IMG/VR virus record: IMGVR_UViG_3300044750_000003
Span: 1 to 64,000 of that record
Source: a virus
Reading direction: 5' to 3' (one strand)
DNA length: 64,000 nt
A program made the position numbers and the translations under genes. The notes under the pieces were generated by a model. The model had not been told where the DNA came from. It did not search any database and saw only the letters and a program-made list of their open reading frames with translations. Shown here one piece after another: positions 2,206 through 52,351 of the stretch (the stretch's first letter is position 1; the number at the start of each line of letters is the position of its first letter).

Positions 2206-2237
2206 TTTGTAATTTTAAAAATAAGATTATATATTTG
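2206..2237 (+). promoter_or_regulatory. Bacteroidota sigma-A type promoter (-33 TTTG, -7 TAnnTTTG)
   Basis: TTTG at 2206-2209, a 20 nt AT-rich spacer, then TATATTTG at 2230-2237. It sits in the 223 nt gap upstream of the glycosyltransferase operon. Confidence 0.55.
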
Positions 2238-2242
2238 TTGAA

Positions 2243-2320
2243 CGCAGAACAATTTTAGAATGAACTCAAAAAATAAAAGACATCCCGGCAACTCATCATT
2301 CAGTAGTAAATTGTTCTGCG
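2243..2320 (+). promoter_or_regulatory. leader hairpin formed by a 13 bp perfect inverted repeat
   Basis: cgcagaacaattt (2243-2255) pairs with aaattgttctgcg (2308-2320). It begins at about the predicted transcription start. It encloses the ATG (2260) of a 38 codon upstream ORF that runs into the GT2 start. Confidence 0.45.
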
Positions 2321-2366
2321 ATAATTTCTCCGTTTGTGGTTGTCGGGTTACTTTAAACCAATTATT

Positions 2367-3137
2367 ATGGCTTTAATAGCAATGTGTGTGTACTGTACGG
2401 ATACTAACGGAAGGCTTGAATACACCAAAGAGTGTTTAAGATCAATAGTTTACACGGTGAACTTAAATAAACACAGACTTTTCTTAATTGACAATGGTTC
2501 TAATCAGGAAACTAAAGATTATTTGGCGGACTTCACATCTAAATTTCCATCAACAATAATCACCAATAAAGAAAACTTGGGTACTGCTAAAGGCATTAAT
2601 TTGGCGCTTAAACAACGGTTAGAAAATGAGCATTGTATTAAGGCGGATAATGATTGTGCTTGGCATATTGAAGGATGGGTAGAGGAATTGGAAGAAGCTA
2701 TAGAAAGAGAGCCAACCATAGGTATTTTAGGGCTTAAAAGAAAGGATTTAAGGCAAACACCTTATGACTCTGATCCTGATTTCAGGAGTGAGTATGTGCA
2801 GTTACCACACGAACATGGACAGAAATGGATAGCAGTTGAGAGAAGCCGTGATATCATGGGAACCTGTACCATGTTAAACTACAGGCTTATTGATAAAGTA
2901 GGGGGGATGGCACAGCCATTACCTTACGCATTTGATGATTCCCTGATGGGATTAAGATCAATACTTTCAGGATTTTGGAACGGCTTTCTTTCCCATATAG
3001 AAATTGAGCATTTAGACACGGGCGAAAACATTTACAGTCAGGAAAAAATAAATATAGCCAATGAAGCATGGCCTATTTACCACGAATGGCACAAGGGATA
3101 TGTTGATGGTACACGACCTTTATACGAAGAAATATGA
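2367..3137 (+). CDS. family 2 (GT-A fold) glycosyltransferase
   Basis: Motifs LFLIDNGSNQET, NLGTAKGINLAL and ADND. The ORF track start at 2334 is TTG; the in-frame ATG at 2367 is preferred. Confidence 0.7.
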   Translation: MALIAMCVYCTDTNGRLEYTKECLRSIVYTVNLNKHRLFLIDNGSNQETKDYLADFTSKFPSTIITNKENLGTAKGINLALKQRLENEHCIKADNDCAWHIEGWVEELEEAIEREPTIGILGLKRKDLRQTPYDSDPDFRSEYVQLPHEHGQKWIAVERSRDIMGTCTMLNYRLIDKVGGMAQPLPYAFDDSLMGLRSILSGFWNGFLSHIEIEHLDTGENIYSQEKINIANEAWPIYHEWHKGYVDGTRPLYEEI

Positions 3138-3745
3138 TTGAATTTTTAGGTGACAGCGGTGAATACGAAATGCTCACAAAGGGTATTGAACTATCTAAAG
3201 AAGTAGATGGGCTATGCTTGGAAATAGGCACACGTTTAGGGCTGTCAGCCAAAACAATATTGGATGCCATAAGATTGTATTGCCCAACAAAAACATTGGT
3301 CTGTGTAGACCCGTATGGCAGTATAATTTATGAAGGAAGAGAGGGACAGCCTTGTCGTTTAGATTATACCAACGAAATGAAATCAACATGTATGGGTAAT
3401 ATTTGGATGGATGTAAAAGAAAGTCCTGTATCATTTAAATATTTTGATTTAGAAGACACTGAATTTTTTGAAAGGTTTTCAGATGGAGTTCCAGTTTATG
3501 AACTTGAAAAGAAAATAGTTAATCAATATTCTTTTGTTTTTTTTGATGGGCCACACAACATAGCACATATTCTAAAAGAAATACGGTTCTTTTTACCTCG
3601 TACGCCAGAAGGCGCAGTGTGGTGTTTTGATGATTGTACGCCGGATTTTTATGACCATGATTATATTGAAAAGGAACTATTTGAGCAGTGTGGTTTTGAA
3701 TTAATTGAAAAAGGACTAAAAAAGGCTTTATACCGTAAACTATGA
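3134..3745 (+). CDS. class I SAM-dependent methyltransferase-like protein
   Basis: LEIGTRLGLS (motif I like), VCVDPY and FFDGPHN. ATGA overlap with the GT2 gene. Confidence 0.5.
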   Translation: MIEFLGDSGEYEMLTKGIELSKEVDGLCLEIGTRLGLSAKTILDAIRLYCPTKTLVCVDPYGSIIYEGREGQPCRLDYTNEMKSTCMGNIWMDVKESPVSFKYFDLEDTEFFERFSDGVPVYELEKKIVNQYSFVFFDGPHNIAHILKEIRFFLPRTPEGAVWCFDDCTPDFYDHDYIEKELFEQCGFELIEKGLKKALYRKL

Positions 3746-4365
3746 GCATCCCAATAATTTCAGTTTGTTCACACCCTGAACACGCTTATAAACTTATCAA
3801 TTCAGCCTCTAAAAATGGGTGGGAACTGCATTTATTGGAAGTGGAATGGAAAGGATTTGGCACCAAACTAATTGCCACACATGAATATTTAAAACTACAT
3901 CCTGAAATAGATAGATTTATATTTGCAGATGCTTTTGATGTGTTGGTATTTGGAACAGAACATGAATTTGAGAAAAAACGTACCCCAGGACAAACATTTG
4001 TATGTAGTGCCGAAAAAGGTTGTTGGCCAAATCCAAAACTTGAAAGTTTTTATCGTAAAAAAGAACATGGGTTTAGTTATTTAAATAGTGGATTATTTTA
4101 TGCTACCAAAAAAGCATTTGAATGGTATATGGGAACTAATCCTCCTGATTATTATACAGACGATCAAGAATGGCTTACAGATAGATTTTTGAATAATAGT
4201 GATATCCAATTAGATACAGAGCAGGTATTGTTCAATTCACATAGCTTTATAGCAGAAGGAGAATATACTTACAATAATGGTCGTGTTCAGATATTAGGAA
4301 ACGAGCCAATTTTCGTGCATTCAAATGGAAAAACTTTAGACCCAAAGTTAGATGAACTTATCTGA
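3742..4365 (+). CDS. GT-A glycosyltransferase resembling the LH3/PLOD glycosyltransferase domain
   Basis: FADAFDV (DxD), CWPNP, YLNSGLFY, DDQEW and HSNGKT in the order I recall for that family. ATGA overlap upstream. Confidence 0.5.
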   Translation: MSIPIISVCSHPEHAYKLINSASKNGWELHLLEVEWKGFGTKLIATHEYLKLHPEIDRFIFADAFDVLVFGTEHEFEKKRTPGQTFVCSAEKGCWPNPKLESFYRKKEHGFSYLNSGLFYATKKAFEWYMGTNPPDYYTDDQEWLTDRFLNNSDIQLDTEQVLFNSHSFIAEGEYTYNNGRVQILGNEPIFVHSNGKTLDPKLDELI

Positions 4366-5065
4366 ACTAAAAACAATTTGGCAGGATAATCCTGATACCC
4401 ACGAACATATTAAAGACCTGTTCACGCAATTAGTTAATCAGGACGAACAACTTTGTGCACATCGTGACTTTGTGGAAAAGAATGCTTTTGGCTTTGGCGA
4501 AAGATGCTTTCAGTATTTTTGGGATATATTGGTACAGGAAATGCCCGAAGTATTTACGTTGTGTGAGGTAGGAGTTTTTCGTTTTCAGATCGTATCACTC
4601 ATTCAGCTATTGGCAGACAGACAGGGGAAGACAGTTGACAGGTATTGTGTGACACCACTAAGCCCAATAGGTATCGGTTGGGAAAGTGATTATAAGGCTG
4701 ATGGCGAAAGGATACATGATGAATTTAATTTGGTAAAGGATTATACCATTTATCATGGACTATCAACTAATCCTGACATAATTGAAAGGGCTTATATTTC
4801 CTCTCCTTACGATATAGTTTATATAGACGGTTCACATGAAAAAGTTGATGTGGACAGCGATTTAAATTTTTATCCGTCATTTGTGAAAAAAGGCGGTTAT
4901 TTGGTAATAGATGACGCCGCATGTCGTATGAATATGAAATGGGGAAACTTCCAGGGTATAGCCGATGTATGCGTTGCTTTGGCAGAATGGGAACAAACTG
5001 AAATAGCTAAAGAGTTTGAATTTCAATTTAACGTGGTTCATCTTATGGTTTATAAAAGAAAATGA
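4352..5065 (+). CDS. class I SAM-dependent methyltransferase (Methyltransf_24/CmcI-like)
   Basis: C-terminal YIDGSHEKVDVDSDL...KKGGYLVIDD pattern. Overlaps the previous gene by 14 nt. Confidence 0.55.
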   Translation: MNLSELKTIWQDNPDTHEHIKDLFTQLVNQDEQLCAHRDFVEKNAFGFGERCFQYFWDILVQEMPEVFTLCEVGVFRFQIVSLIQLLADRQGKTVDRYCVTPLSPIGIGWESDYKADGERIHDEFNLVKDYTIYHGLSTNPDIIERAYISSPYDIVYIDGSHEKVDVDSDLNFYPSFVKKGGYLVIDDAACRMNMKWGNFQGIADVCVALAEWEQTEIAKEFEFQFNVVHLMVYKRK

Positions 5066-5256
5066 TACTCCAACTATCACCACCTATTGAGGTAAAAACA
5101 CCTCTTGGCTATGGTTGGTGTATATTTATCATAGACTATTCAATAAATATCAACACAATATGGGTAGTCAGACTAAAAGACGGGATAGTTAAACACTTTG
5201 ACGCAAATGATATATTGGTTCAGGGTAATGAAATGTTAAAACAGGAAAAGTTATGA
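5062..5256 (+). CDS. hypothetical small protein
   Basis: 64 aa ORF with ATGA overlaps at both ends. Confidence 0.5.
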   Translation: MILQLSPPIEVKTPLGYGWCIFIIDYSININTIWVVRLKDGIVKHFDANDILVQGNEMLKQEKL

Positions 5257-5441
5257 AAAAGGAGAAAGTAAAATTACCATCACAATTCCAACCGGAAGAA
5301 ACAGTAGTGCTTTACGGGCACGAATATCCTGTGGAATACGTAAAGTTCACAGATAGTAAAGTTTATTATGGTGTAAATGGCGTAGAGGTAGAAAGTGATT
5401 TAGTAAACTCCCCCGCCAATTCAGGTGACGAGGAAGTTTAA
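5253..5441 (+). CDS. hypothetical small protein
   Basis: 62 aa ORF with an ATGA overlap upstream. Last gene of the coupled run. Confidence 0.5.
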   Translation: MKKEKVKLPSQFQPEETVVLYGHEYPVEYVKFTDSKVYYGVNGVEVESDLVNSPANSGDEEV

Positions 5442-5444
5442 GAG

Positions 5445-5669
5445 TTACGCTAACGGAGCGTTTGCAGCAGCCTTAATGGTAGATGCAGCCTCGTTGCAAT
5501 ACAAAGCAGTTAAAACAGGGTTGGTCGTATAAACAACAGACTTGATAAACGGAAAATTTGCATCCGTATAATCAAGAACGTCAAGAATAGACGAAACCCC
5601 AATATTGTGTTGTTTTGAAGGGGGTGTTCTGTTCTGCAACTGTGCAGAAACTGTTACAATGTTTGCCAT
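5445..5669 (-). CDS. small S/T-rich protein, possible paralogue of 13839-14048
   Basis: 74 aa ORF alone on the minus strand between plus-strand operons, divergent from the GT-B gene at 5731. Confidence 0.5.
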   Translation of the reverse strand: MANIVTVSAQLQNRTPPSKQHNIGVSSILDVLDYTDANFPFIKSVVYTTNPVLTALYCNEAASTIKAAANAPLA

Positions 5670-5730
5670 GATTAAAGATTTGAAATGAATAAATTAAAAA
5701 ACTTGCAGTAAATATATGTAAAATTATTAT

Positions 5731-6666
5731 ATGCAAGTATTGTATTACTCACCCACAATTTGGAGCAACACCGATTTTTATCGTACTACAGGGGTGCTCC
5801 CATTTATAAAAAATACTGAAATAACGTTAAGGGATATTTCTCATTTTGGTAAAATAAACCAATGGGATTTACAGTCCTCGGATGCTATTATTATTCAGCG
5901 ACCGTGTAACCCCGACCATATGAAGTTGCTTAAACTGGCTAAGAAGTGCGGCTTAAAGGTAATTGTTGAATACGATGACGCCGTATTGCACGTAGATATG
6001 TATTCTCCTGTTTATCAGCAGTACAAAGAACAGAAGTATATTATTTTAGAAATGATAGATTTAGCTGACGAGGTTTGGGTAAGCACTAAAACCATAGCTG
6101 ATACTTTTGGCAGGGGTATTATTATACCAAATGCACTGAATGAATATATTTTAGGGAATTGTGCTGAATTTAATTCCAATAGCAACAAGGTAGTTTGGAG
6201 AGGGGGTTCGGCACACGAGGCAGATGTTTATGAACATATAGAAGAAATCAAGGTCATGGTGAACGACAATCAAAACCTCGACTTCTTTTTTATAGGCCAC
6301 CGATTTATAAAATTAGAAATGGCATTGGATAAGTTGAGACTAAGAAATTATTATGCGGTAGATCAGATGCCGGTAATGCAATATTTTGATTACCTTAAAA
6401 AGCTAAAACCAAAAGCTATGATATTCCCATTATGTGATACGGTGCTTAATAGGGGTAAGAGTAATATTAGCCTCATCGAAAGCGCGTGGTGTGGGGCTGA
6501 ATATTTTGGTAATAAAACGTTGCCCGAATTTGACTTCCCATTTACACATAGCTTATCTGATTTCCCGGTAGGTTCAGCACACAAAGAGGCAGTAGAATAT
6601 GTAGAAGAAAACCTGTTACTTTCTAAGGTAAATTTGTTACGTGAACAATCTTTGCTAACTTTATAA
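5731..6666 (+). CDS. GT-B fold glycosyltransferase (tentative)
   Basis: 311 aa. VVWRGGSAHEADV and a C-terminal NRGKSNISLIESAWCGAEYFG, which resembles the GT-B nucleotide-sugar binding half. Confidence 0.45.
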   Translation: MQVLYYSPTIWSNTDFYRTTGVLPFIKNTEITLRDISHFGKINQWDLQSSDAIIIQRPCNPDHMKLLKLAKKCGLKVIVEYDDAVLHVDMYSPVYQQYKEQKYIILEMIDLADEVWVSTKTIADTFGRGIIIPNALNEYILGNCAEFNSNSNKVVWRGGSAHEADVYEHIEEIKVMVNDNQNLDFFFIGHRFIKLEMALDKLRLRNYYAVDQMPVMQYFDYLKKLKPKAMIFPLCDTVLNRGKSNISLIESAWCGAEYFGNKTLPEFDFPFTHSLSDFPVGSAHKEAVEYVEENLLLSKVNLLREQSLLTL

Positions 6667-6667
6667 A

Positions 6668-7459
6668 ATGATCGATACCATTGACCCCAAAACGGCTATT
6701 ATACCAACAAATTTTTGCCTTATCAAAGCTGATATCTCCTATGATTTCCACGAAATACCAACACCTGACGGTAAAGTAAGTATACAACTAAGCTACTTCA
6801 ATCAGGATAAGAGCAAATACCTGTCTATCAGTGGAACGGTACTGATGTTACCGAAAGAAAAATGGTTTTTCAGCAATAAGGCAGATGGTGGCGAGGGTGA
6901 CGAATTTAACGCTATGGTGCGTAACTCATTAGAGTTTGATGCCAATTGTGATATAAAGGTGGGTGATAAAGTTTTCTTTGACTACAGGGAGCAAATAGAC
7001 TGTGAAACAGAACGCAGATTGGTCAGGACAGCAGACTATGGGCTTTGCGTTTTGGTGCGCTTAGACAGGCTATATGGCGTTTATGAGAATGATGATCTAA
7101 GGCCGGTAAACGGGTATGTATTTTTCTTACGTGACCAATTACCTGATAAACTGGAACTAAGCAACGGTATTTTACTTAGCAGAAACCACAATAAGTACGG
7201 TCTTAATACTGGAACTGTTTTAGCGGCTGATGCCCCTGTCAGGCAACACTTAGAAAATGAGGAAGAGCCAAATATAGAATTGGCACAAGGCGACAGGATA
7301 CAATTAATGAAGAACAGGGGTTTCAGAATAAGCTACGAGGTTGGTAACGAGGATTTGAGGGATATAGAGATTGTTCACAGGAAAGACATTTGGGGGGATT
7401 GGAACGATATACTTAGTATTGTACGTGAATATGAAGCTAATAAATTGGAGGTAGTATGA
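6668..7459 (+). CDS. hypothetical protein with two Cpn10/GroES-like halves
   Basis: SGTVLMLP...IKVGDKVFFDY in the first half and NTGTVLAADAP...LAQGDRIQL in the second. ATGA coupling to the next gene. Confidence 0.35.
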   Translation: MIDTIDPKTAIIPTNFCLIKADISYDFHEIPTPDGKVSIQLSYFNQDKSKYLSISGTVLMLPKEKWFFSNKADGGEGDEFNAMVRNSLEFDANCDIKVGDKVFFDYREQIDCETERRLVRTADYGLCVLVRLDRLYGVYENDDLRPVNGYVFFLRDQLPDKLELSNGILLSRNHNKYGLNTGTVLAADAPVRQHLENEEEPNIELAQGDRIQLMKNRGFRISYEVGNEDLRDIEIVHRKDIWGDWNDILSIVREYEANKLEVV

Positions 7460-7986
7460 GATACGATGCCAACTGTAAGGAACCAATGGTTGAAAAGTAC
7501 CCTACTTTAAAGGGTATAACAGATGACGACAAGCTTTTGAGGGTAGTCATTTGGATGATAAGTGAAGATAGTCCATTTCTGTTAGCAGACCGTGAAGATT
7601 ATGCGTCAAGGCTCACTAAGGTTTTAAAGCACGTTGGCGCTGAATACCCAAGAATAGCAGAGGGGGAGAACAAAGAGTATAACGCTGTAGCCACGGGACT
7701 TTTTATGATGATGGATAATTTGGTTTATGTAGCGTGGCAATCAAAGCTGATTAATTTTCATCAACTTACCATGTTTTTGAGGTCGCCACTAAACTTAGAC
7801 GATCCTGAAAAATCAATAAAGCAACGGCTCGACATTGAAAAATACCTGCCCGATATGCACAAATCATTAGTAGAATATGAAAGACAAATATTCCCCGATA
7901 CGCATACCAGAAAGGTAGTAAAGAAAGAAACAGCGCGACTTTTACAATTTGCCGAGAAGTTTAGTGATGTAAAAGGGGTAATTTAA
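7456..7986 (+). CDS. putative small terminase subunit (by position only)
   Basis: 176 aa ORF immediately upstream of, and TAATG-coupled to, the large terminase. No motif recognised. Confidence 0.3.
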   Translation: MRYDANCKEPMVEKYPTLKGITDDDKLLRVVIWMISEDSPFLLADREDYASRLTKVLKHVGAEYPRIAEGENKEYNAVATGLFMMMDNLVYVAWQSKLINFHQLTMFLRSPLNLDDPEKSIKQRLDIEKYLPDMHKSLVEYERQIFPDTHTRKVVKKETARLLQFAEKFSDVKGVI

Positions 7987-10103
7987 TGAAATTATACACA
8001 GTAGATTATTCAGAAATAAGCGGATACACAGAATTTGGCGGTTATAAAATACCACTCCCTAAAATGCCCCCTAAGTCACAGATGGAAAACTACGGTCTAT
8101 CTGAAAAGCAACAAAAATTCCGGCATACTGAAACTCCGAAATCCTTATTATACCGGAAAAATTTTGTAAGCAAGGAAGAAGAAGAATGGATAGCAAGGGA
8201 ATGGCATAAGCGCAAAAATGGAATTTGGATTTTAATAAAAGGGCAACCAATTTATTTCACGGGGCCTTATTACTTTTTTTTAAATTATTGGTGGACTATA
8301 AAAAATATACATCCTGAGTTTCGTCTTTTTCAGTGCCATATATTCCAGTTGTGGAATATGATAGTCAGGAATATAAACTGCTATGGGTTATTCCTTATTG
8401 GCCCACGAAGGGGGGGTAAAACAGAATTTACGTTAGGAGAAGAGTATGAGTTTTGTAGCCGTGTAAAGAACGTACAGGGGCATAATCAATCTAAAAACGA
8501 CGAGGAAGCCTATAAAAACTTTAAGCGTATCACAAGGGCTAATAAGAAGATGATCTGGTTTATGAAGCCTGTCCATAAAGGATCAGATGACCCCGAAGAT
8601 CGTTTAGAGTTTTTATATCCATCTGAACGTATGACCGATGCCAAAATGAGAGGCATGGCAGAGAATGATGAGAATACGGAGGAAGTAAAATATTCAGAGG
8701 AAGAGTTAGGCTCAAAGATTGACTTTGAACCTGCTAAAGCGAGTGCCTATGACGGGCAGGAAACTAATCGTGGTATCCTGAACGAAGCAGGAAAGTTAGA
8801 AACCATGTCACTTATTAAGTGGTGGGAAGTATTTAAGCCAACATTACACTATTTTGATGGAGAGGAAATTGTAGGTAAATGTTGGATTGAAAGCTCTATA
8901 GAGGAAATTGATGATGACCAAATAGAAGAAGTAAATTCATTATGGACAGACAGCAACCCCGATGAGTTAAACGAAAATGGAAGAACCACATCAGGATTAT
9001 TCAGGGTATTTATATCTGTTGAAGATGTAGCAAAACCGGATGAGTGGGGCTTCCCTAAACGCGAAGAAGCGAAATTAAGACTTGAAAGGGAAATAGCAAA
9101 CTTACGTGCAAAAGGGAAAGAAAAAGCGATAAGCAGCTTATTAAGAAAATCGCCACAAAAAGTTGAAGATGCACTTACTCCGTCAGGAGAAAAAGGCGCA
9201 TTTAACAAGGATAGACTACAGGAGATATTTCAGCGTATAGATTACCCATCCGCCTATAATTTACCACCTAAAGAATGGATTGTTAAAGGGAATTTTGAAT
9301 GGGTAAATGGACAGCGAGACACCAAAGTAATTTTCAGACCTTGCGATGACGGTAAATGGGATGTTTCGCAATTGCTTAAAGACGGGAAAGATAATTTGTC
9401 GGTAATGATAGGCGGTGTACGATATCCAGGAAATATACGTCACTATAGAGGTGGTTGCGACCCTTTCGAGCATGATTTATCTGAGATTGTGGATGCTAAC
9501 AGAGCATCTAAAGGCGCGGCAATGATATTCAGGATGTATGATGATATGGTAGACGGAGCTAAGAAACATGATGATGGCGTACCATTGGATTTTGCATGGG
9601 AATGGGAAACAAATCAATTTGTGGCAGATTACTTCGCCCGTGAAGATGACCCAAATGTATTTTTTGAGGATATGCTAATGATGCATGTTTACTACGGCAC
9701 ACAAATGAATGTGGAGAATAACAAGCGTTCTATTAAAGGGTATTTTAGGGCGCGTGGGTATGCTGAATATTTGATGGACAGACCCGAAAGTACGTTTGAC
9801 AGCAAGGAATATGAAGCACGGGGGGTAAAACAAGTGGGAACGCCTGCTACTACTGATACCATTGACCAATATTTTATGGCTATAGCCCACTATGTAATGA
9901 TGTACTCAAATGCCATTAAACACAGGAGAATTGTATTAGCTTGGCTTAGTTTGAACAAAAGCAAAAAATCACGTACTTCAAACGATACTGGCGTAGCGGC
10001 AGGTTGGACACTTTTAGGTAAGGAAAAGATGTATTTAAGATTCCCGGATGAGCAAGTTGAAGAAAGTAAAGGCGATACATGGTTTGTTACGTATAAAGTT
10101 TGA
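7986..10103 (+). CDS. terL: terminase large subunit
   Basis: Walker A LIGPRRGGKTEF, ILNEAG Walker B-like segment, later GCDPFEHD nuclease-like motif. 705 aa, directly upstream of the portal candidate. Confidence 0.7.
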   Translation: MKLYTVDYSEISGYTEFGGYKIPLPKMPPKSQMENYGLSEKQQKFRHTETPKSLLYRKNFVSKEEEEWIAREWHKRKNGIWILIKGQPIYFTGPYYFFLNYWWTIKNIHPEFRLFQCHIFQLWNMIVRNINCYGLFLIGPRRGGKTEFTLGEEYEFCSRVKNVQGHNQSKNDEEAYKNFKRITRANKKMIWFMKPVHKGSDDPEDRLEFLYPSERMTDAKMRGMAENDENTEEVKYSEEELGSKIDFEPAKASAYDGQETNRGILNEAGKLETMSLIKWWEVFKPTLHYFDGEEIVGKCWIESSIEEIDDDQIEEVNSLWTDSNPDELNENGRTTSGLFRVFISVEDVAKPDEWGFPKREEAKLRLEREIANLRAKGKEKAISSLLRKSPQKVEDALTPSGEKGAFNKDRLQEIFQRIDYPSAYNLPPKEWIVKGNFEWVNGQRDTKVIFRPCDDGKWDVSQLLKDGKDNLSVMIGGVRYPGNIRHYRGGCDPFEHDLSEIVDANRASKGAAMIFRMYDDMVDGAKKHDDGVPLDFAWEWETNQFVADYFAREDDPNVFFEDMLMMHVYYGTQMNVENNKRSIKGYFRARGYAEYLMDRPESTFDSKEYEARGVKQVGTPATTDTIDQYFMAIAHYVMMYSNAIKHRRIVLAWLSLNKSKKSRTSNDTGVAAGWTLLGKEKMYLRFPDEQVEESKGDTWFVTYKV

Positions 10104-10161: not shown

Positions 10162-12495
10162 ATGGAAAAATTAAAGTTCGCCACAAATTATCTAAAAGAA
10201 ACACAGTACCCTTTTCCTGATGAAGCCAATCCTGTAAAAGATGAGGGCTATTTTTTAGCCGCTTGTAACGCCATGTGTTCTAAATACTTTATGAACAGGT
10301 GTGCCTTACCTTATGATGGTTGGGGAGTACGCAGAAGCATTGCTGAACTAAGGGCGTACCGTCACGGCAGAAACAACATTAACAAGTACAAGAACTGGAT
10401 GATAGGGATGCCTGACCAATCGGGTGAGCGAAAAACAACGTTAAATATTTCGTGGGACATGCTTCAAATACTCCCGCAAAAGATGGATGCAGTATTGGGT
10501 TTCCTGATGAAGACGAAGTACGACATTAACGTGCAGGCGGGGGACTATGAGGCGTTAATGGACAAAAAGGCAAAAGTAGCCATAGCCAAAATAGTAACGG
10601 ATATCAGGTTGGGCAATATGCTATCCGTAGTCAACTCCAACCACACCGTAAACTTAGCACCGCCAAAGATACCAGTAGCCAACAACTCCGTACCTATACA
10701 GACCCCACAGGATGTTGATTTAGCCCAAAGCATAGGACTATTCATGTTGGAGGAAGAAAGTGCCTTAGAGAACCTGATAGACACCACACGCTACATTTCT
10801 AAATCAGATGGCATAGAAGATTTAATCAATGACGACCTGATTACCTGCGGATACGCCGGAAGAAGAATATTTACCAACCCCAACACGAATGAAGTGGAGG
10901 AAGGGTATGTAGATGTAGAACGGGCAGTATTCCCTACTTCACAATACCGTGATTACCGGGATGCCTCTTGGGGAGGTTGGTGGGAACGCATCAGCATAGC
11001 CGAACTCAGGCGCTCAAGTAACCTTACTGACAAACAAGTAGTGGAGATAGCACGGAGATATGCCGATACCAACAGGGCAGGATTTTACTCATCCCTATAC
11101 ACCAATAACGATCAGTTTGATTTTAGGATGATAGATCAGATAGAGGTCGATGTATTCCGTGGCTACTGGATAGGCAGTAAACAGGTAAAAGTAACAAGTG
11201 TCACAAGGAAGAACGGCTCATTGGTAGTCAACAAAGTTGATAATGACTACGAATTGGAAAATGTAGCCAATAACAAGGGTAAATCCTTGGATGCCTTTTC
11301 TAACATGACGGTATTTAAAGCCTCTTTGGTATTGGGGTCAAGCTATGTTTTTGACTATGGAGAGGACACCGACATCAACTATAAAACTGAGGGTGGTAAA
11401 AAATGGCCGCTGTTCCCGTTAAGGTTTGCCCGTACAGGTTCAACAAGCCTAGTGGAACGCTCTATTCCTTTCGTGGATGACGCACAGCTTATCAACCTTA
11501 AGCTACGTGTAGCAAGGGCTAAGATGCCTGCACCACCTAACTTAGCCATAGACAAAGGTGCATTAGAGGGAATGAAGATAGACGGTGTATCCTACAAACC
11601 ACAGCAACTACTAAAACTGCTACAGGACGAAGGATACCTGTTGATGGATACCAAGAACCAATGGGGGCAAAATCAGGGCGCAGGAAGACCCGTAGTCCCT
11701 ATAGGGACAGACCTGATGCAAATTATCAGCGCATGGTGGGAAGATATGAACCGAACCATAGGCATGATAGAAAAGGTAACAGGCGTAAATGATATTTTTG
11801 CTGCCCAAACACCACATGAGCAAACAGGGTTAGGCGTATCAAAACTACTTTTAGAAGGCGCTCAAAACTCATTAACGCCACTTATCAATTCAGGTGAGCA
11901 AATGATACAGGGTACTTATGAAGTGGTAGCTTCAAAATGGCAATGTGTAGCGAAGTATGCTACCCCTGAGCAAAAGAAGAAGTTATCTATTTCAAGGAGT
12001 TTGGAGATAGTAGCTGTAAGTGAGAAGATTTTTGATTACGATTTTGACACCATCGTGCGCCCCGGTTTTTCAGATGCAGACAAGGAAAGAATGATGAATG
12101 ATTTGCAAAACATGAGAAGTGCTAGCAGGCAAGGTGGTCAGGCATCTATGAGTGAGAATGATTTTTTAATTGTTTTTTCTATGATCCGTTCAGGCAGACT
12201 AAAACAGGCAGAAATATACACTGCTTATGCGGTTAACAAGCGCCAACAGCAGGCTCAGCAGGAACAACAGCAAATGATACAGCAGAACGGGCAAGTTCAG
12301 CAGCAATCTCTACAGGCAAAAGGCCAAACAGACTCACAACTTAATCAACAAGAGGCACAGAATGATGCAGCTTTACAGCAGCAAAAATTTGAAGCACAAT
12401 CACGCCAGGCTGTGCAGGTTGAAATAGTAAAAGGACAAGCAAGATTAAATGAGATTAGGTTAAAATCATTGTTAGAACCACGAAAGATAGCTTAA
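10162..12495 (+). CDS. portal protein (by position and size)
   Basis: 777 aa ORF following terL, with a Q-rich C-terminal tail. Confidence 0.55.
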   Translation: MEKLKFATNYLKETQYPFPDEANPVKDEGYFLAACNAMCSKYFMNRCALPYDGWGVRRSIAELRAYRHGRNNINKYKNWMIGMPDQSGERKTTLNISWDMLQILPQKMDAVLGFLMKTKYDINVQAGDYEALMDKKAKVAIAKIVTDIRLGNMLSVVNSNHTVNLAPPKIPVANNSVPIQTPQDVDLAQSIGLFMLEEESALENLIDTTRYISKSDGIEDLINDDLITCGYAGRRIFTNPNTNEVEEGYVDVERAVFPTSQYRDYRDASWGGWWERISIAELRRSSNLTDKQVVEIARRYADTNRAGFYSSLYTNNDQFDFRMIDQIEVDVFRGYWIGSKQVKVTSVTRKNGSLVVNKVDNDYELENVANNKGKSLDAFSNMTVFKASLVLGSSYVFDYGEDTDINYKTEGGKKWPLFPLRFARTGSTSLVERSIPFVDDAQLINLKLRVARAKMPAPPNLAIDKGALEGMKIDGVSYKPQQLLKLLQDEGYLLMDTKNQWGQNQGAGRPVVPIGTDLMQIISAWWEDMNRTIGMIEKVTGVNDIFAAQTPHEQTGLGVSKLLLEGAQNSLTPLINSGEQMIQGTYEVVASKWQCVAKYATPEQKKKLSISRSLEIVAVSEKIFDYDFDTIVRPGFSDADKERMMNDLQNMRSASRQGGQASMSENDFLIVFSMIRSGRLKQAEIYTAYAVNKRQQQAQQEQQQMIQQNGQVQQQSLQAKGQTDSQLNQQEAQNDAALQQQKFEAQSRQAVQVEIVKGQARLNEIRLKSLLEPRKIA

Positions 12496-13484
12496 CGTAA
12501 CAGATACCTGAACCACTTCAATATTGCATGGTGATTATAGGCAGCAATATCGTGTATATTATCTTCAACTGATTCAGCCCTATGCTGCATGGTATATTCC
12601 AATACTTCTGCCATATTTGATTCACTATTTTGGTCTGCTTTTCGGCAATGAAGCCAGTTAATAGCATTAGATACAACAACAGGAACATGCGATGCCACAC
12701 AATCAGCAGTTACAATATTGAACGTTTCTGTAAAGCTAACCTGCATACATGCATCCATATCGGCAATTAACTTTACGAACTCTGAGTGTTCAAGCCATCC
12801 TATTTCTACTAATTTATGACGTGTACCTTCAAATAAAGCGCGCAATGACTTAACTACGGATTCTCCACGCTGTTCTACCCGACTTGAATTTACGTAGAAA
12901 TGCACTACAGCCTTTCTTTTCTCTGCCCATAGTATGGCGGCAACCGCCTGTGATAATTGGTTCTTAAATGGCCTGATGGCACCAAAGCATCCTATTTTAT
13001 ACAGGTGCTTGCGCTTATATGGCTCGCATCCATTGAACTCAGTAACTGGGTATATATTAGGCAGGTAAATATTTGGTATACCTAGTTCTTGAAAATCATA
13101 TGATGTTTGATCGTGGTTAAATGATACGACAATGAACTTAACATATTCCTTTACCCATGCTATTGAGTTACCTTCCATTGCCAGGAACGGTATACGGCTA
13201 TGTATGCGCACTACAAATCTAATATGTGTATGAAGCGATACTAACTCACGCAACTTATCAGGCGATACCCATATAGCCTCTATGATGCATATATCAGGTC
13301 TGAACCTATGAAGCCATTTATCTATTTCATTCCCGTCCCTACAGAACTCTAAAACAGCTTGTGTGTGTGGAAACTTATTCACAGCATCTACAACGAACCT
13401 GGCTGAATTACGAAGACCTGCTTTGGATGGAATAATATCGCTGCCATATTCAGAGTTTGTGCGTACAAGAAATAGTATTTTCAT
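12492..13484 (-). CDS. GT-B fold (GT4-like) glycosyltransferase
   Basis: SFTETFNIVTADCVASHVPVVVS resembles the E-x7-E region of GT4 enzymes. The track start at 13490 is TTG; ATG at 13484 is preferred. Its stop overlaps the portal stop within TTAA (12492-12495). Confidence 0.55.
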   Translation of the reverse strand: MKILFLVRTNSEYGSDIIPSKAGLRNSARFVVDAVNKFPHTQAVLEFCRDGNEIDKWLHRFRPDICIIEAIWVSPDKLRELVSLHTHIRFVVRIHSRIPFLAMEGNSIAWVKEYVKFIVVSFNHDQTSYDFQELGIPNIYLPNIYPVTEFNGCEPYKRKHLYKIGCFGAIRPFKNQLSQAVAAILWAEKRKAVVHFYVNSSRVEQRGESVVKSLRALFEGTRHKLVEIGWLEHSEFVKLIADMDACMQVSFTETFNIVTADCVASHVPVVVSNAINWLHCRKADQNSESNMAEVLEYTMQHRAESVEDNIHDIAAYNHHAILKWFRYLLR

Positions 13485-13838: not shown

Positions 13839-14048
13839 TTATCTTGGATATTCCTGAATGCCTTTAACACATTGTTCAGCAAAGTCAGGATAGCACGTAA
13901 CAGGTGTTGTTACAGCAGGAGTTCCTGAAACATAATTAAGTAATGAATCCTGTGTAGATGCTGAATTGTTACCAAAGGGGCTTAGTTCTGTAGCGGGTAA
14001 CGATACACCTGTTGCAGGTGGATACGTCATTGTTAAATTTGATGCCAT
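13839..14048 (-). CDS. small S/T/P-rich protein, possible paralogue of 5445-5669
   Basis: 69 aa ORF, last gene of the reverse-strand operon, followed by a terminator. Confidence 0.5.
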   Translation of the reverse strand: MASNLTMTYPPATGVSLPATELSPFGNNSASTQDSLLNYVSGTPAVTTPVTCYPDFAEQCVKGIQEYPR

Positions 14049-14061
14049 GATTTAATGTTTT

Positions 14062-14313
14062 TTAGGATAAATATATAAACTTAATTTCTAAAATATGTAC
14101 CAAGTGCTTTCCATCAATCTCGGTTGCGATAATTGGATTATATAAAACTTTTTTACCAAGTAAACTTTTGTCAGCCTTTTCACCTACTATAACCACCGTG
14201 CCTGTGTTTGGTTTTTGCAAAACCGTCTCAGGTAAAAATAAACCTGATGGCATTTGCCTTATTGGTTCTGTTGGTTCAATCAGTATTCTATTTCCTAATA
14301 TTTTCATTTCCAT
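14062..14313 (-). CDS. GroES/Cpn10-like co-chaperonin (T4 gp31 analogue)
   Basis: LGNRILIEP...SGLFLPE...NTGTVVIVGE...GKKVLY matches the Cpn10 pattern. About 83 aa. Confidence 0.7.
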   Translation of the reverse strand: MEMKILGNRILIEPTEPIRQMPSGLFLPETVLQKPNTGTVVIVGEKADKSLLGKKVLYNPIIATEIDGKHLVHILEIKFIYLS

Positions 14314-14329
14314 TTACCGTCTTTAAATA

Positions 14330-14520
14330 TTTCAATTTTATTACAAATTTGACATTTGCGTGTACGAAAGGTTTTTTGTAGCCAAGTATGGCCAAGAAAA
14401 GTGCAGTGAACTACCCATCCACGCCAAAGGCGATGGGATGGGCTTCGGGTTTCATAGAGTGTGCTTTGTTGCCAAAGTCTGATTTACTCTCCACCTTTGT
14501 AATGGACAGTTCCTGCCCAT
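14330..14520 (-). ncRNA. candidate TnpB omega-RNA (reRNA) scaffold; boundaries not resolved
   Basis: TnpB guide RNAs are expected to overlap the 3' end of tnpB and extend downstream. A strong hairpin, cccatcc-cat-cgcc-ttt-ggcg-t-ggatggg, lies at 14414-14442 over the last codons. A 97 nt non-coding tail separates it from the next gene. Confidence 0.35.
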
Positions 14521-15634
14521 ATATTTTTAATCCTTCTTTAAGAATATTCTTTGAAGCATTTAAATCACGGTCTAATACGTGTCCGTTTTTGCAAGTCCAT
14601 TCTCTAATTGAAAGATTTAAGTCTTGATTTATCCAACCACATTCACAACAGGTTTTAGAACTTGGATACCAGCGATTTATTTTAACAATTTGCTTGTCAT
14701 TCCAATCTGCTTTGTATTCAAGCAACCTTACAAAATTTCCCCAACTGGCATCTGATATGTGTTTGGCAAGTTTATGGTTTTTGACCATTCCTTTCACATT
14801 CAAATCTTCCAATGCGATTATATCAAAATCAGTTACCAATTTGTGAGATACCTTATGTAAATTATCCATTCGTGAGTTGGTTATCTTCTCGTGAATTAAG
14901 GCTATCTTTCGTCTTTGTTTTTCAAACGAATTACTGCCATTTGTTTTACGAGAAAGATGTTTTTGTGCCTTTGCTAACTTTTTTTCATATTGTTTTGTGT
15001 ATTTGTTATTCTTAAATTTAATTCCATCAGAAGTAATGACAAAATCCTTCAAACCTAAATCTATTCCGCAAACCGCACCAGTTTTTTCTTTTGGCTGATA
15101 TTGCTCTTCGGATAGTATTGATACAAAATATTTTCCTGTTGGTGTTTTGCTTAAAGTGCATTTACCAATTTCGCCTTTTACTTCACGGTGAACGTTAACT
15201 TTAATTCCTTCTTTGAACTTTGGTGCGTAAAATTTACCATCTTCCAGTTTGGCAAATTGTGGAACAGTAAATGTGTTCTTCTTTTTTCTCGATTTAAATC
15301 TTGGAAACTTTGCATTTCCACGAAAGAAGTTCACGTATGCAGTATCCAAACATCTTAAAGCAAATTGTAATGATTGGCTATTAACTTCTTTAAGCCAAAT
15401 AGTTTCATCTTTTTTCTTTAATTCTGTTAAGGTTGCTGCTTGTGCATAGTAGTTATTAGACTTTTTATCTGCTTGATATTGTTCTTTACGCTCATTCAGA
15501 AAATGATTATAGACAAATCGGATACCTCCAAAATGCTTATACAACAACACTTTTTGCTCTTGTGTTGGTTGCATCTCAAATTGATATGTCCGAAATATTG
15601 TCTTCATTCTACTATTAAATAGTGTTGTCATCAT
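14411..15634 (-). CDS. tnpB: TnpB, IS200/IS605-family RNA-guided RuvC endonuclease
   Basis: N-terminal RTYQFEMQPTQEQ; RuvC-I GIDLGLKD; RuvC-II ALEDLN; zinc finger CCECG...CKNGH; RuvC-III DRDLNASKNI. The true start may be the third ATG at 15607. Confidence 0.85.
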   Translation of the reverse strand: MMTTLFNSRMKTIFRTYQFEMQPTQEQKVLLYKHFGGIRFVYNHFLNERKEQYQADKKSNNYYAQAATLTELKKKDETIWLKEVNSQSLQFALRCLDTAYVNFFRGNAKFPRFKSRKKKNTFTVPQFAKLEDGKFYAPKFKEGIKVNVHREVKGEIGKCTLSKTPTGKYFVSILSEEQYQPKEKTGAVCGIDLGLKDFVITSDGIKFKNNKYTKQYEKKLAKAQKHLSRKTNGSNSFEKQRRKIALIHEKITNSRMDNLHKVSHKLVTDFDIIALEDLNVKGMVKNHKLAKHISDASWGNFVRLLEYKADWNDKQIVKINRWYPSSKTCCECGWINQDLNLSIREWTCKNGHVLDRDLNASKNILKEGLKIYGQELSITKVESKSDFGNKAHSMKPEAHPIAFGVDG

Positions 15635-15664: not shown

Positions 15665-15859
15665 TCATATCTCAAAAACCAATTTTAACTTATCACCTAT
15701 TTTTTTTAAAAGTTGGGTATTAATGCCTGTTAATTTACCATTTTCTAACTTATTAATGGTAGATGTTGACATCCCTAAACTTGATGCAAGATTTTGTTGT
15801 GATATTTTTATTTTGTTACGTTCGGTTCGTATTTGCAAACCTATTTTTTTCATGTTCAT
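15665..15859 (-). CDS. XRE-family helix-turn-helix DNA-binding protein
   Basis: ISQQNLASSLGMSTSTINKLENGK is a classic Cro/C1-type HTH. 64 aa, 30 nt upstream of tnpB and co-oriented with it. Confidence 0.75.
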   Translation of the reverse strand: MNMKKIGLQIRTERNKIKISQQNLASSLGMSTSTINKLENGKLTGINTQLLKKIGDKLKLVFEI

Positions 15860-52108: not shown

Positions 52109-52351
52109 TCATACTTTAAATTCTCTAATAGTTTTACTTAACCAATCGTTTACCTCGTGTTTTGAATAGAGATTTTCCTGAAAATTACAGTGTAACATTC
52201 CTTTTGCATACCACACTTTAAGGTTCATTATTCCCGGAAATTGGTGCTCAAGTATTTCTTTCCAAAGTCCGGCAGCTTCTTCGTCCCTTAAGTCCTGATG
52301 ATAGTTGATTAAATCAATCTCTGATATTTCTTTACTTATTCTTAAAGTCAT
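52109..52351 (-). CDS. hypothetical protein
   Basis: 80 aa, ATGA coupling upstream. Confidence 0.5.
   Translation of the reverse strand: MTLRISKEISEIDLINYHQDLRDEEAAGLWKEILEHQFPGIMNLKVWYAKGMLHCNFQENLYSKHEVNDWLSKTIREFKV

Follow-up and report, generated by a model that had tools for sequence, protein, structure and literature searches.

A conserved, phage-restricted glycosyltransferase and O-methyltransferase module between the replication and packaging genes of uncultured Bacteroidota-type phages

Introduction

Glycosyltransferase (GT) and methyltransferase (MT) genes set side by side in a phage genome raise the question of what glycan they build and on which acceptor. Such a locus lies at positions 2,367 to 6,666 of a 64,000-nucleotide stretch of viral DNA (positions 1 to 64,000 of IMG/VR record IMGVR_UViG_3300044750_000003), referred to here as the window. 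The source genome is complete at 74,847 bp. The phage is uncultured and its host is of Bacteroidota type.

Organization of the Cassette and Its Genomic Setting

The locus and its surroundings comprise the following features.

2206..2237, plus strand: tentative Bacteroidota-type promoter-like site, TTTG-N20-TATATTTG, inferred from one pattern-search match
2367..3137, plus strand: gene A, family 2 glycosyltransferase (GT2, GT-A fold), 256 aa, soluble, pI 5.2 (PF00535)
3134..3745, plus strand: gene B, accessory class I cation-dependent O-methyltransferase-like protein, 203 aa (PF13578)
3742..4365, plus strand: gene C, LH3/Mimivirus R699-type retaining GT-A (PLOD GT domain), 207 aa (PF25342)
4352..5065, plus strand: gene D, core O-methyltransferase (Methyltransf_24/CmcI-rhamnosyl-OMT type), 237 aa (Pfam and fold)
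5062..5256, plus strand: gene E, small conserved ORF, 64 aa (homologues in relatives L003 and L004)
5253..5441, plus strand: gene F, small ORF, 62 aa, last of the A-F chain (homology in L003)
5445..5669, minus strand: gene X, conserved Ser/Thr-rich protein, 74 aa, between F and G (five relatives)
5731..6666, plus strand: gene G, GT-B (GT4-like, retaining-type) glycosyltransferase, 311 aa (PHROG 7162 and fold)
6668..7459, plus strand: gene H, Cpn10/GroES-like domain protein (PF00166, 22.5 bits, cut-off 21.1)
12492..13484, minus strand: gene L, probable extra GT-B (GT4-like), accessory (sub-threshold PF13692, PF20706 and PHROG 2170)

The first-pass annotation had counted seven ATGA-chained ORFs between 2367 and 5441. 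The coordinates and the chaining stand, and the public gene calls of the source contig match the ORF coordinates of the cassette, but the number of ORFs is six (A to F), with ATGA overlaps at four of the five junctions and a 14-nt overlap between C and D. Genes A to F are linked to the genes of replication and recombination rather than to the late operon. From position 5731, G, H, a putative small terminase (TerS), TerL and the portal gene follow each other with 1-nt gaps or overlaps. The cassette lies directly upstream of the DNA-packaging genes, and G is co-oriented with TerS, TerL and portal. Gene G is a core module member as well as the first gene of this operon. Gene H also precedes the terminase in the cassette-less relatives L005, L006 and L008 and in cultured Elemovirus, and belongs to the packaging block, outside the cassette.

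The promoter-like site falls within the 256-nt gap upstream of gene A, of which a sigma-70 scan was uninformative; over the window, the motif is mildly enriched (85 observed, 66 +/- 8 in shuffles). Among the small ORFs, E is 64-69% identical in L003 and L004, and is kept in the latter despite a different cassette. In L003, E and F form a single fused protein of 122 aa, with F matching its C-terminal half. Gene X has homologues of 61-73% identity in five relatives, one of them L004, which has neither A-D nor G; it is best regarded as a candidate neighbour of the cassette and not as an established member. Profile searches gave no family match for F or X. No transmembrane segment was predicted in A-D and G, which are acidic (pI 4.7-5.5), and the cassette enzymes are therefore expected to be cytoplasmic.

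Glycosyltransferases

Profile and fold searches upheld GT folds for A, C and G, as first annotated, and reassigned none of them to a different fold. Gene A passes the PF00535 cut-off of 23.3 with 44.8 bits (1.7e-11), and its DNGS and DND motifs are legible in the sequence. Gene G, at the head of the terminase operon, has no Pfam match; its assignment as a GT-B enzyme derives from PHROG 7162 'glycosyltransferase' (6.6e-17) and from an AlphaFold2 model (pLDDT 94.3) with a GT-B fold like that of GT4-type enzymes. Foldseek matches of this model include SenB, BshA, MshA, TarM, PglA, GtfA and SdgB, and many giant-virus GTs are found among its viral fold neighbours. The PF13692 cut-off is passed by a homologue of G in the third lineage described below.

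The resemblance of C to the LH3/PLOD glycosyltransferase domain is borne out by GT_PLOD PF25342 (4.2e-17, 62.6 bits, cut-off 27) and by its best PDB matches, Mimivirus R699 (9dyt, 4.9e-9) and human LH3 (about 1e-6). Across 38 homologues, residues D63, D66, E91, W95, D140, D141, H193 and N195 do not vary; they align with the catalytic residues D83/D86, E114, W118, D162/D163, H216 and N218 of R699, which bind Mn2+, UDP and the acceptor sugar (PMC12279948). C retains HxN, the DxxD motif for Mn2+, the aromatic residue that stacks on uridine and the E/W/DD residues for the acceptor sugar; as a retaining GT dependent on Mn2+, it most likely transfers a hexose onto another sugar. Since the residues retained are those with which R699 binds the acceptor hexose and adds glucose in alpha-1,2 linkage, C most likely elongates a glycan rather than initiating it. 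Neither collagen-like repeats in the window nor a lysyl hydroxylase or 2OG oxygenase in the genome were found, so the acceptor of C cannot be galactosyl-hydroxylysine on collagen.

Gene L had been counted as a fourth GT, beside the portal gene. Its position is as described: it lies between the portal and head genes, convergent with portal and overlapping its end by 4 nt. The family call is weakly supported, with 23.4 bits for Glyco_trans_1_4 (PF13692, cut-off 27), 9e-4 for PHROG 2170, no precomputed Pfam match and no PDB sequence match. Four homologues share an invariant E253-x7-D261, and among close kin L occurs in L001 and L002 only. The set thus consists of three GTs and two MTs, with L as a possible further GT.

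Methyltransferases

Both proteins annotated as class I methyltransferase-like exceed the cut-off of PF13578 Methyltransf_24 (26.3), B with 36.2 bits and D with 28.3, and share a D-G-x-H ... DD motif block. Gene D also passes RMNT_CmcI (23.7, cut-off 23.2). Its AlphaFold2 model (pLDDT 94.4) has as top Foldseek matches the sugar O-MT MeT1 of M. hassiacum (2.8e-9), MycF, CalS11 and SpnH; as modelled, D resembles sugar O-methyltransferases and not nucleic-acid MTs. In L001, a GIY-YIG homing endonuclease takes the place of B.

Conservation and Turnover of the Module

What the first-pass annotation lacked is that the gene set is conserved, phage-restricted and common to several lineages. GT2, PLOD-type GT, GT-B and O-MT form a conserved module, new here, that is shared by at least three lineages of phages with Bacteroidota-like traits, and its position between the replication and the packaging genes is constant. 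In the 30 viral loci around C over which co-occurrence was counted, A stands beside C in all 30 and D in 28, G lies within 5 kb in 29, and B is present in only four. All homologues (85 of C, 44 of G, 259 of D) are on contigs of 77 kb or less. Close homologues of C and G were absent from 50,697 cultured-phage records, and one weak match was all that a motif search through 185,579 bacterial and archaeal genomes gave; the cassette is restricted to phages.

Domain fusions occur among the relatives, namely GT_PLOD with methyltransferase (C+D; P0263 and P0283), GT2 with GT_PLOD (A+C) and GT25 with GT_PLOD, and one relative of 1,781 aa joins GT11, GT10, GT25 and two PLOD-GT stretches. These natural fusions indicate a single probable glycan assembly line. 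Together with the similarity of D to sugar O-methyltransferases, the GT_PLOD+methyltransferase and GT2+GT_PLOD fusions support the earlier suggestion of a methylated glycan.

In sister phages, module proteins are 27-58% identical, while TerL, portal and MCP are 74-91% identical, with G as an exception (55-75%). The window's C and D are nearer to the versions of distant lineages. One and the same slot holds diverged, swapped or different GT/MT cassettes in sister phages: L004 has GT2, GT2_5 and an FkbM-methyltransferase there, and L005 an N6/N4 DNA methylase. This pattern suggests diversifying selection on the glycan, as would be expected of a feature exposed at the surface.

Possible Targets of the Glycan

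The best reading of these data, a tentative one given somewhat less than an even chance, is that the phage itself glycosylates virion proteins in the cytoplasm. What follows on the sequence of steps, the sugars added, the methyl cap and the acceptor is inferred. Three soluble enzymes would build a short oligosaccharide from host nucleotide sugars, contributing one sugar each: the GT-B enzyme G and the LH3/R699-type GT-A enzyme C, both of retaining type, and the inverting-type GT2 enzyme A. D, and here also B, would then O-methylate a sugar hydroxyl, probably capping the chain, and L may attach one more sugar in this phage. The acceptor would most likely be at least one virion protein of the phage itself, glycosylated in the cytoplasm either ahead of assembly or in its course, and virions would be released with a phage-specified glycan coat differing between related phages. 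The constant position of the module directly next to the packaging and head operon favours this reading. Against it, the canonical acceptor of C's family, collagen, is absent, A-F are attached to the replication side of the junction, and DNA methyltransferases flank the module in a lineage of ~35 kb, a weak pointer to DNA. No structural protein near the module is recognisable as common to all three lineages, so a target protein would have to be recognised by some generic feature.

It is rather unlikely that the soluble GTs and O-MTs act instead on undecaprenyl-phosphate-linked precursors of LPS, capsule, Bacteroidota O-glycan or other envelope glycoconjugates at the cytoplasmic face, although a changed surface of the infected cell could block superinfection or the adsorption of progeny to debris. 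Polysaccharide gene clusters typically contain GT2, GT4-like and CmcI-type O-MT enzymes, the closest fold to D is that of a polysaccharide-methylating enzyme, and NCBIfam shows weak resemblance of cassette proteins to rhamnosyl- and galactofuranosyl-transferases. A Bacteroidota-wide host target would also explain the transfer of the module among phages with unrelated structural genes, and the predicted glycan-degrading tail proteins (Beta_helix, weak GH43) imply that host glycans matter to this phage. There is also a phage-encoded soluble GT-A, TarP, that acts on wall teichoic acid, according to a preprint (10.1101/2023.12.21.572611). However, to our knowledge, the surface-converting phage GTs known so far come from temperate phages, and no integrase was found in the complete 74.8-kb genome, so lysogenic conversion does not fit. 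Further points against an envelope target are the near absence of the module from bacterial and archaeal genomes, the lack of a membrane anchor in any protein and of a detected flippase or polymerase, and the failure of bacterial NCBIfam models to score meaningfully for the cassette families, which are thus not recent captures from host glycan loci.

A small glycosylated product is improbable. The cassette would then modify either a small molecule or a small phage protein or peptide, such as E, F, X or another Ser/Thr-rich ORF of this kind, yielding a soluble effector, decoy or signalling compound instead of a virion coat. Every lineage does have small conserved ORFs inside or beside the module (here E, F and X; in the ~35-kb lineage c9, c3 and c41; in the third the minus-strand S/T/P-rich c60/c75, which neighbour A), and several fold neighbours of G (SenB, BshA, MshA, LmbT and a tetrahydrobiopterin GT) act on small molecules. 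Yet these ORFs are not homologous between lineages (X versus c60/c75 was not significant in hhalign), X and E are still present in L004 despite the replacement of the entire cassette there, no hydrophobic N-terminus like a signal peptide is seen in the small ORF sequences, and we know of no precedent for such a cassette.

Glycosylation of DNA is likewise given little chance and is disfavoured. Here the GTs would place a mono- to trisaccharide on a modified base, as modelled on T4 or on 5mYOX/ThyS-dependent phage GT clusters, blocking host nucleases, with the MTs decorating the sugar. The position between replication and packaging genes would suit this, as would fast cassette turnover in a nuclease arms race, the DNA methylase in the same slot of L005, and, in the ~35-kb lineage, a ParB-N6 methylase flanking the module and, in some contigs, a C5 cytosine methylase 3 kb upstream. 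DNA GT clusters also adjoin helicases, methyltransferases and terminases, and their GT-B enzymes, like G, resemble BshA and MshA, according to Pyle et al. (bioRxiv 10.1101/2023.12.21.572611). The first-pass annotation had seen no hydroxymethylase or base-modification gene in the window and considered DNA glycosylation unsupported; this holds for the whole 74,847-bp contig, in which no thymidylate-synthase-like hydroxymethylase, TET/JBP dioxygenase or C5-methylase was found. In the other lineages, there is no hydroxymethylase or TET/JBP dioxygenase within about 10 kb of the module. Restriction sites are strongly avoided, both in the window (observed versus expected: GATC 70 vs 189, GGCC 68 vs 173, CTGCAG 0 vs 14) and in the ~35-kb lineage (GATC 0 vs 80, CCGG 0 vs 39, GCGC 0 vs 15, AGCT 0 vs 29), no less than in module-less sister phages, which argues against blanket base glycosylation, as this should relax such selection. 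The acidity of A-D and G, the sugar-acceptor residues of C and the sugar-O-MT character of D point the same way, and T4 beta-GT is not among the best 50 PDB fold matches of G.

Comparison with Known Systems

No bacteriophage counterpart with this gene set was found in the searched literature. DNA-glycosylating clusters are alike in being multi-GT sets of uncultured phages near helicase, methylase or terminase genes, with GT-A and GT-B members building mono- to trisaccharides, as far as the available preprint text describes them (10.1101/2023.12.21.572611). They differ in their defining source of hydroxymethyl-pyrimidine, absent from the whole genome here, and in the intense site avoidance of the module phages; that portion of the text mentions neither O-methyltransferases nor a PLOD-type GT.

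Mimivirus R699 and the GT domain of human LH3/PLOD3 (PF25342) are collagen galactosyl-hydroxylysine glucosyltransferases. The likeness to C lies in the sequence match, the PF25342 pass and the conserved metal, uridine and acceptor-sugar residues. However, C is a catalytic domain alone, without the second Rossmann domain of R699 or the lysyl-hydroxylase domain of LH3, and its partners are GT2, GT-B and O-MT rather than GT25/COLGALT, although GT25+PLOD-GT fusions do occur among distant relatives.

Giant viruses encode glycosylation systems of their own, with R699/L230-type GTs and GT-GT-MT proteins, and assemble short methylated glycans on virion proteins in the cytoplasm, independently of the host. 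A064R of chlorovirus PBCV-1 is a GT-GT-methyltransferase, and Mimivirus glycosylates its fibrils. Some of their proteins combine GT and methyltransferase domains in one chain, a feature shared by the phage relatives carrying C+D. These viruses infect eukaryotes, and their homology to the module is at fold level only, save for C with R699.

Mycobacteriophages in which an O-methyltransferase gene precedes a tandem of three GT genes are reported to glycosylate their capsid and tail-tube proteins (Freeman et al. 2023, as cited in PMC11600133). Operons of an O-MT with two or three tandem GTs share with this module, so far as that citing account goes, phage-encoded soluble GTs with an O-MT and a composition that varies between related phages. 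The hosts are Actinomycetota rather than Bacteroidota-type, no actinophage was matched by C or G among the 50,697 cultured-phage records, and the present module has a PLOD-type GT-A and is placed at the replication/packaging junction. Mycobacteriophage virion glycosylation nevertheless offers the best functional analogy for a module whose action on the virion is, here, a prediction.

Gene content of the locus

The locus carries a conserved, mobile and phage-restricted cassette of three glycosyltransferases (genes A, C and G) and one O-methyltransferase (gene D), including a stand-alone LH3/R699-type enzyme. A further methyltransferase (gene B) is accessory to it. The phage genome from which the window comes measures about 75 kb; Logan contig SRR35361594_94523 (74,847 bp) and a JGI contig of 75,114 bp contain the same sequence.

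Genes of the locus (positions in the window)
A: 2367-3137, plus strand, glycosyltransferase family 2 (GT2)
B: 3134-3745, plus strand, Methyltransf_24 protein
C: 3742-4365, plus strand, GT_PLOD glycosyltransferase
D: 4352-5065, plus strand, Methyltransf_24 and RMNT_CmcI protein
E: 5062-5256, plus strand, small ORF
F: 5253-5441, plus strand, small ORF
X: 5445-5669, minus strand, conserved 74-aa ORF inside the 289-nt gap between F and G
G: 5731-6666, plus strand, GT-B glycosyltransferase
H: 6668-7459, plus strand, GroES/Cpn10-like protein
TerS: 7456-7986, probable small terminase, co-oriented with G and H
TerL: 7986-10103, large terminase, same co-oriented block
Portal: 10162-12495, end of the co-oriented block
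L: 12492-13484, minus strand, convergent with portal

The first-pass annotation had counted seven ORFs between 2367 and 5441, chained by ATGA overlaps. Six are counted here, all on the plus strand; four of their junctions are ATGA as described, and C and D overlap by 14 nt. The proposal that a GT-B gene at 5731 heads the operon continuing into the terminase genes holds, since G is followed by H, TerS, TerL and portal with 1-nt gaps or overlaps throughout, save for 58 nt between TerL and portal. E and F, two ATGA-overlapping ORFs in the window (5062-5441), correspond to one 122-aa protein in the related locus L003 (7073-7441); the gene may have been split or fused, or a recoding site could possibly be involved.

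The replication module comprises RepL, a DnaB-like helicase, NinB and several HNH endonucleases (source contig upstream of the window, L074 2885-3421, and whole genome). Pfam detected no recognisable DNA polymerase or primase across the approximately 75 kb, and the majority of structural genes stayed without annotation in the PHROGs search. A similarity search of positions 2300-6700 against cultured-phage DNA gave no match, and Rfam and tRNA scans found nothing. Sigma-70 promoter and terminator signals did not exceed those of shuffled sequences, as expected for a Bacteroidota-type host.

The cassette enzymes

Among A-F, a GT2, two class I methyltransferase-like proteins and a GT-A domain resembling that of LH3/PLOD had been recognized at first pass, as well as the GT-B nature of G. 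All these assignments are upheld by profile or structure comparisons.

The PLOD-type enzyme C scores 62.6 bits against PF25342 (cut-off 27), and among solved structures it is closest to Mimivirus R699 (9dyt, 4.9e-9) and human LH3 (6wfv, 7.5e-7). R699 is a collagen galactosyl-hydroxylysine glucosyltransferase with kojibiose, formed from glucose, also among its products. The R699 residues contacting Mn2+, UDP and the acceptor sugar are D83/D86, E114, W118, D162/D163, H216 and N218 (PMC12279948). They align to D63/D66 (the DxxD motif for Mn2+), E91, W95, D140/D141, H193 and N195 of C, all invariant in 38 homologues. R699 has 458 aa in two tandem Rossmann domains and needs to dimerize for activity, whereas C, with 207 aa, consists of the catalytic domain only and matches residues 77-223 of the R699 chain. 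The canonical acceptor of R699 and LH3 is galactosyl-hydroxylysine on collagen-like repeats, together with a lysyl hydroxylase, but the phage has neither repeats nor hydroxylase: no G-X-Y run of five or more occurs in any frame of the window, and Pfam scans and precomputed matches over the complete genome revealed no 2OG-Fe(II) oxygenase. A collagen-type substrate was therefore rejected. In bacteriophages, the collagen-type LH3/R699 domain has radiated widely as a stand-alone enzyme, with neither collagen nor hydroxylase present, a point of interest for where this family arose and which acceptors it can use. Our literature search found no report on PLOD glycosyltransferases in phages.

The GT2 enzyme A exceeds the PF00535 cut-off (44.8 bits against 23.3) over residues 17-175, covering profile positions 10-164 of 168, and the precomputed Pfam match on the source contig agrees. 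Its translation contains 'LIDNGS' and 'KADNDC', read by eye in this single sequence as the nucleotide-binding Asp and the DxD metal motif. G matches a PHROG glycosyltransferase family. It gave no Pfam match, but its homologue in L034, a locus of the approximately 35-kb phages, reaches 30.0 against PF13692 (cut-off 27). The AlphaFold2 model of G (pLDDT 94.3, pTM 0.91) has a GT-B fold and matches SenB, BshA, MshA, TarM, PglA, PimA and GtfA in Foldseek (E 1e-7 to 1e-6, TM about 0.55-0.65), with SdgB also among the closest structures. By these neighbours G is probably a GT4-type retaining enzyme. The fold was rejected as a clue to the acceptor, because the top matches mix protein, teichoic-acid, lipid and small-molecule glycosyltransferases.

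Both methyltransferases pass the cut-off of PF13578 (Methyltransf_24, 26.3), B with 36.2 and D with 28.3; D also reaches 23.7 against PF04989 (RMNT_CmcI, cut-off 23.2). Both domains are precomputed in most of the D homologues listed, and the D-G-x-H ... DD block of D is also found in B. A PDB sequence search with D returned just a weak MycE match. Its AlphaFold2 model (pLDDT 94.4) is unlike DNA methylases; the top Foldseek matches are MeT1, Anaplasma OMT, MycF, SafC, CalS11 and SpnH. The nearest, MeT1, is a methylmannose-polysaccharide O-methyltransferase, and the sugar O-methyltransferases MycF, CalS11 and SpnH are interspersed with other cation-dependent O-methyltransferases. These fold neighbours, together with natural fusions to a glycosyltransferase domain, suggest that D would act on a sugar hydroxyl.

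Gene L had been described as a GT4-like gene abutting portal. Its position stands, and it is convergent with portal, but the family match is below threshold (23.4 against PF13692, cut-off 27), PHROG 2170 at 9e-4 being likewise a weak match to the GT1 clan. The protein has an invariant E-x7-D motif. No precomputed Pfam match and no PDB sequence match, by single sequence or profiles, was found for L, hhalign detected no relationship with G, and the neighbourhoods of its homologues have no other gene in common with the window. L is basic (pI 8.1), whereas A-D and G are acidic (4.7-5.5). Neither A-D, G nor L contains transmembrane segments. PDB sequence searches with A, B and G were uninformative, and NCBIfam searches with the cassette proteins yielded no meaningful match.

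Distribution of the module

A scan of IMG/VR with C identified 57 viral loci. In the 30 with enough flanking DNA, A was always adjacent (30/30), G and D nearly so (29/30 and 28/30), and B in 4/30. Loci with the module span at least three lineages, between which TerL is 21-29% identical or undetectable.

Lineages carrying the module
Lineage 1: window-like phages, 73-76 kb
Lineage 2: 50-70 kb, helicase ... A-(B)-C-D-G-[GroES-like]-...-TerL-portal
Lineage 3: about 35 kb, G-c9-A-C-D-[ParB-N6 methylase]-TerS-TerL (c9, a small ORF family)

In all lineages the module lies between replication and packaging genes, GC content is 33-43%, and Shine-Dalgarno sequences are nearly absent. TerL comparison gives phages of Flavobacterium, Cellulophaga, Tenacibaculum and Maribacter as the nearest in culture. 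Taken together, these observations indicate hosts of the Bacteroidota type. In the cultured Elemovirus, the GroES-like-TerL-portal block is present without the glycosyltransferase cassette.

All homologues of C (n=85), G (n=44) and D (n=259) are on contigs of at most 77 kb. Besides the window's phage, a widespread phage of 63.5 kb that carries P0187 can serve as a representative. Among 50,697 phage records, C and G had no close homologue in cultured phages; the matches, all remote, were to 2OG-oxygenase fusion proteins of cyanophages and to glycosyltransferases of Phapecoctavirus. A motif scan with the C alignment over 185,579 species-representative genomes gave one weak match, on a 4.8-kb MAG contig. 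The wider PLOD-GT superfamily comprises 3,686 representative clusters. Ten of its multi-domain proteins were scanned, and C+D, A+C and GT25+C fusions were found, which argue that the separate genes here probably act on one glycan. The GT25+PLOD-GT fusion mirrors in one polypeptide the two-step COLGALT-then-LH3 collagen pathway. Distant relatives of C include giant multi-GT fusion proteins, P0351 (684 aa) and P0267 (1,781 aa), of which one joins GT11, GT10, GT25 and two PLOD-GT stretches in its 1,781 aa.

The approximately 35-kb phages (L034, L039, L045, L053 and L064) are depleted of palindromes. Over about 20 kb, observed/expected counts are 0/80 for GATC, 0/39 for CCGG, 0/35 for CTAG, 0/29 for AGCT and 0/15 for GCGC, with GGCC also absent or nearly so. 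These phages encode C5 and ParB-N6 DNA methylases.

Cassette turnover among sister phages

Sister phages are 74-91% identical to the window in TerL, portal and MCP, but 52-58% in A, 27-48% in C, 41-44% in D and 55-75% in G. The C and D genes of the window are closer to copies from distant lineages (52-55% identity). The locus thus appears to diversify like a surface-antigen locus. Such fast turnover among sister phages is a mark of arms-race selection. In phage therapy and gut ecology, the range of hosts, the stability of particles or their recognition by the immune system and lectins could be affected.

In the sister phage L004 (TerL 78% identical), the same slot (2317-6871) holds a 404-aa GT2, a Glyco_tranf_2_5 protein, an FkbM methyltransferase and three ORFs without assignment, with E, X and H kept despite the different cassette. 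A GIY-YIG/NUMOD homing endonuclease takes the place of B between A and C in L001 (5339-6106); members of the same family are located between TerL and portal in L007 and after portal in L006. In L005 the slot contains an N6/N4 DNA methylase.

Neighbouring genes

The glycosylation genes are flanked by small conserved proteins on the minus strand, all of which begin with 'MA' and have a high content of Ser, Thr, Pro and Asn.

Small Ser/Thr/Pro/Asn-rich proteins
X, 5445-5669, minus strand, and o13839, 13839-14048, minus strand: window lineage
L017 3199-3513 and L027 7302-7562: related families c60/c75, directly upstream of A in another lineage

Possible roles for them are those of glycan acceptor or small virion protein. 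X, o13839 and c60/c75 were rejected as one homologous common acceptor, as only c60 and c75 are linked.

Two GroES/Cpn10-like proteins are encoded in the window, whereas this genome showed no GroEL. H (6668-7459, plus strand) has 263 aa with a C-terminal Cpn10 domain and is conserved directly upstream of the terminase genes throughout the clade, with cultured Elemovirus no exception; the second protein (14062-14313, minus strand) is an 83-aa GroES of canonical size. Between the latter and the head genes are a TnpB gene (IS605 OrfB/Cas12f-like, 14411-15634, minus strand) and an adjacent HTH_3 gene (15665-15859, minus strand). They look like a recent IS insertion in the structural region, because the sister phages L001, L003, L004 and L007 lack them. 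A weak second Cas12f1-like_TNB match is located at 52348-52887 (minus strand). In an attempt at host identification, no record of the exact TnpB protein of the window was found with either start codon. A 338-aa protein at 56349-57365 (minus strand) has a precomputed match to Gad2 (PF26128), which we take to be an anti-Gabija counter-defence family, and adjoins a Sipho_Gp157 gene (57547-58119). This neighbourhood may be an anti-defence island.

Target of the glycan

The first-pass annotation had proposed a methylated glycan on a phage-specified target and had considered DNA glycosylation unsupported for want of a hydroxymethylase or base-modification gene. The methylated-glycan reading appears essentially right, and of the acceptors left, virion proteins, we infer, fit best. 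The enzymes belong to the cytoplasm and are specific to the phage, their module borders the morphogenesis operon, and the locus diversifies in the manner of a surface antigen. Precedents come from giant viruses and from mycobacteriophages, where an O-methyltransferase together with tandem glycosyltransferases acts on proteins of the capsid and tail tube (Freeman 2023, cited in PMC11600133). Candidate acceptors in this phage include the MCP (17107-18573), a 371-aa protein downstream of it, the tail proteins and E, F and X. Virion proteins are proposed as a candidate acceptor and not more firmly, since no structural protein shared by the lineages was recognised near the module, A-F form a chain with early or middle genes, and DNA methylases are frequent neighbours.

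This last association, a weak one, points towards DNA glycosylation, a reading that the remaining evidence disfavours, in agreement with the first assessment. Known phage DNA glycosyltransferase clusters depend on hydroxymethylase or TET-type enzymes (bioRxiv 10.1101/2023.12.21.572611). At the sensitivity of Pfam profiles, with many ORFs left without a match, the complete 74,847-bp genome has no ThyS-like hydroxymethylase, TET/JBP or C5-methylase, so that neither route to 5-hydroxymethyl-pyrimidines (ThyS-like, or C5-methylase plus TET/JBP) is complete. In the other lineages, no hydroxymethylase or TET/JBP lies closer to the module than about 10 kb, and some contigs of about 35 kb have a C5-methylase and no dioxygenase. 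Restriction sites are also strongly avoided, with no relaxation compared with module-free sister phages. 6-mer palindromes have an observed/expected ratio of 0.77 in the window, with values of 0.68-0.87 for the other cassette-bearing loci, and the window contains 70 GATC sites where 189 are expected, 68 GGCC (173) and no CTGCAG (14). To judge from what is established for T-even phages, blanket DNA glycosylation should lift selection against such sites, and strong avoidance counts against a DNA target. Lysogenic conversion affecting the host surface is a poor fit, because Pfam found no integrase in the complete genome, a single weak match came from 185,579 genomes, and the cassette enzymes lack membrane anchors, unlike GtrABC/TarP-type systems, which belong to temperate phages or prophages and whose Gtr proteins are membrane-embedded.

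Comparison with known glycosylation systems

Experimental proof of phage-encoded virion glycosylation is, to our knowledge, confined to actinobacteriophages, where it affects antibody recognition; giant viruses also glycosylate their virions. What is new here is a conserved phage-restricted module, a variant of these phage and viral self-glycosylation systems with a defined four-gene set (GT2, PLOD-GT, GT-B and O-methyltransferase). It occurs in several lineages of Bacteroidota type that are abundant and uncultured, which suggests that phages glycosylate themselves, or direct glycan synthesis in some other way, far more commonly than thought. A bolder proposal, which we hold tentatively and as less likely than not, is that it would represent the first self-contained virion-protein glycosylation in phages whose hosts are Gram-negative and of Bacteroidota type: a horizontally moving module of three glycosyltransferases and an O-methyltransferase, with a stand-alone LH3/R699 alpha-1,2-glycosyltransferase, building lineage-variable, methyl-capped virion oligosaccharides, with sister phages exchanging cassettes in the way bacteria exchange O-antigen loci. 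In gene content, the cassette matches the mycobacteriophage virion-glycosylation cassettes, in which several tandem soluble glycosyltransferases are combined with an O-methyltransferase.
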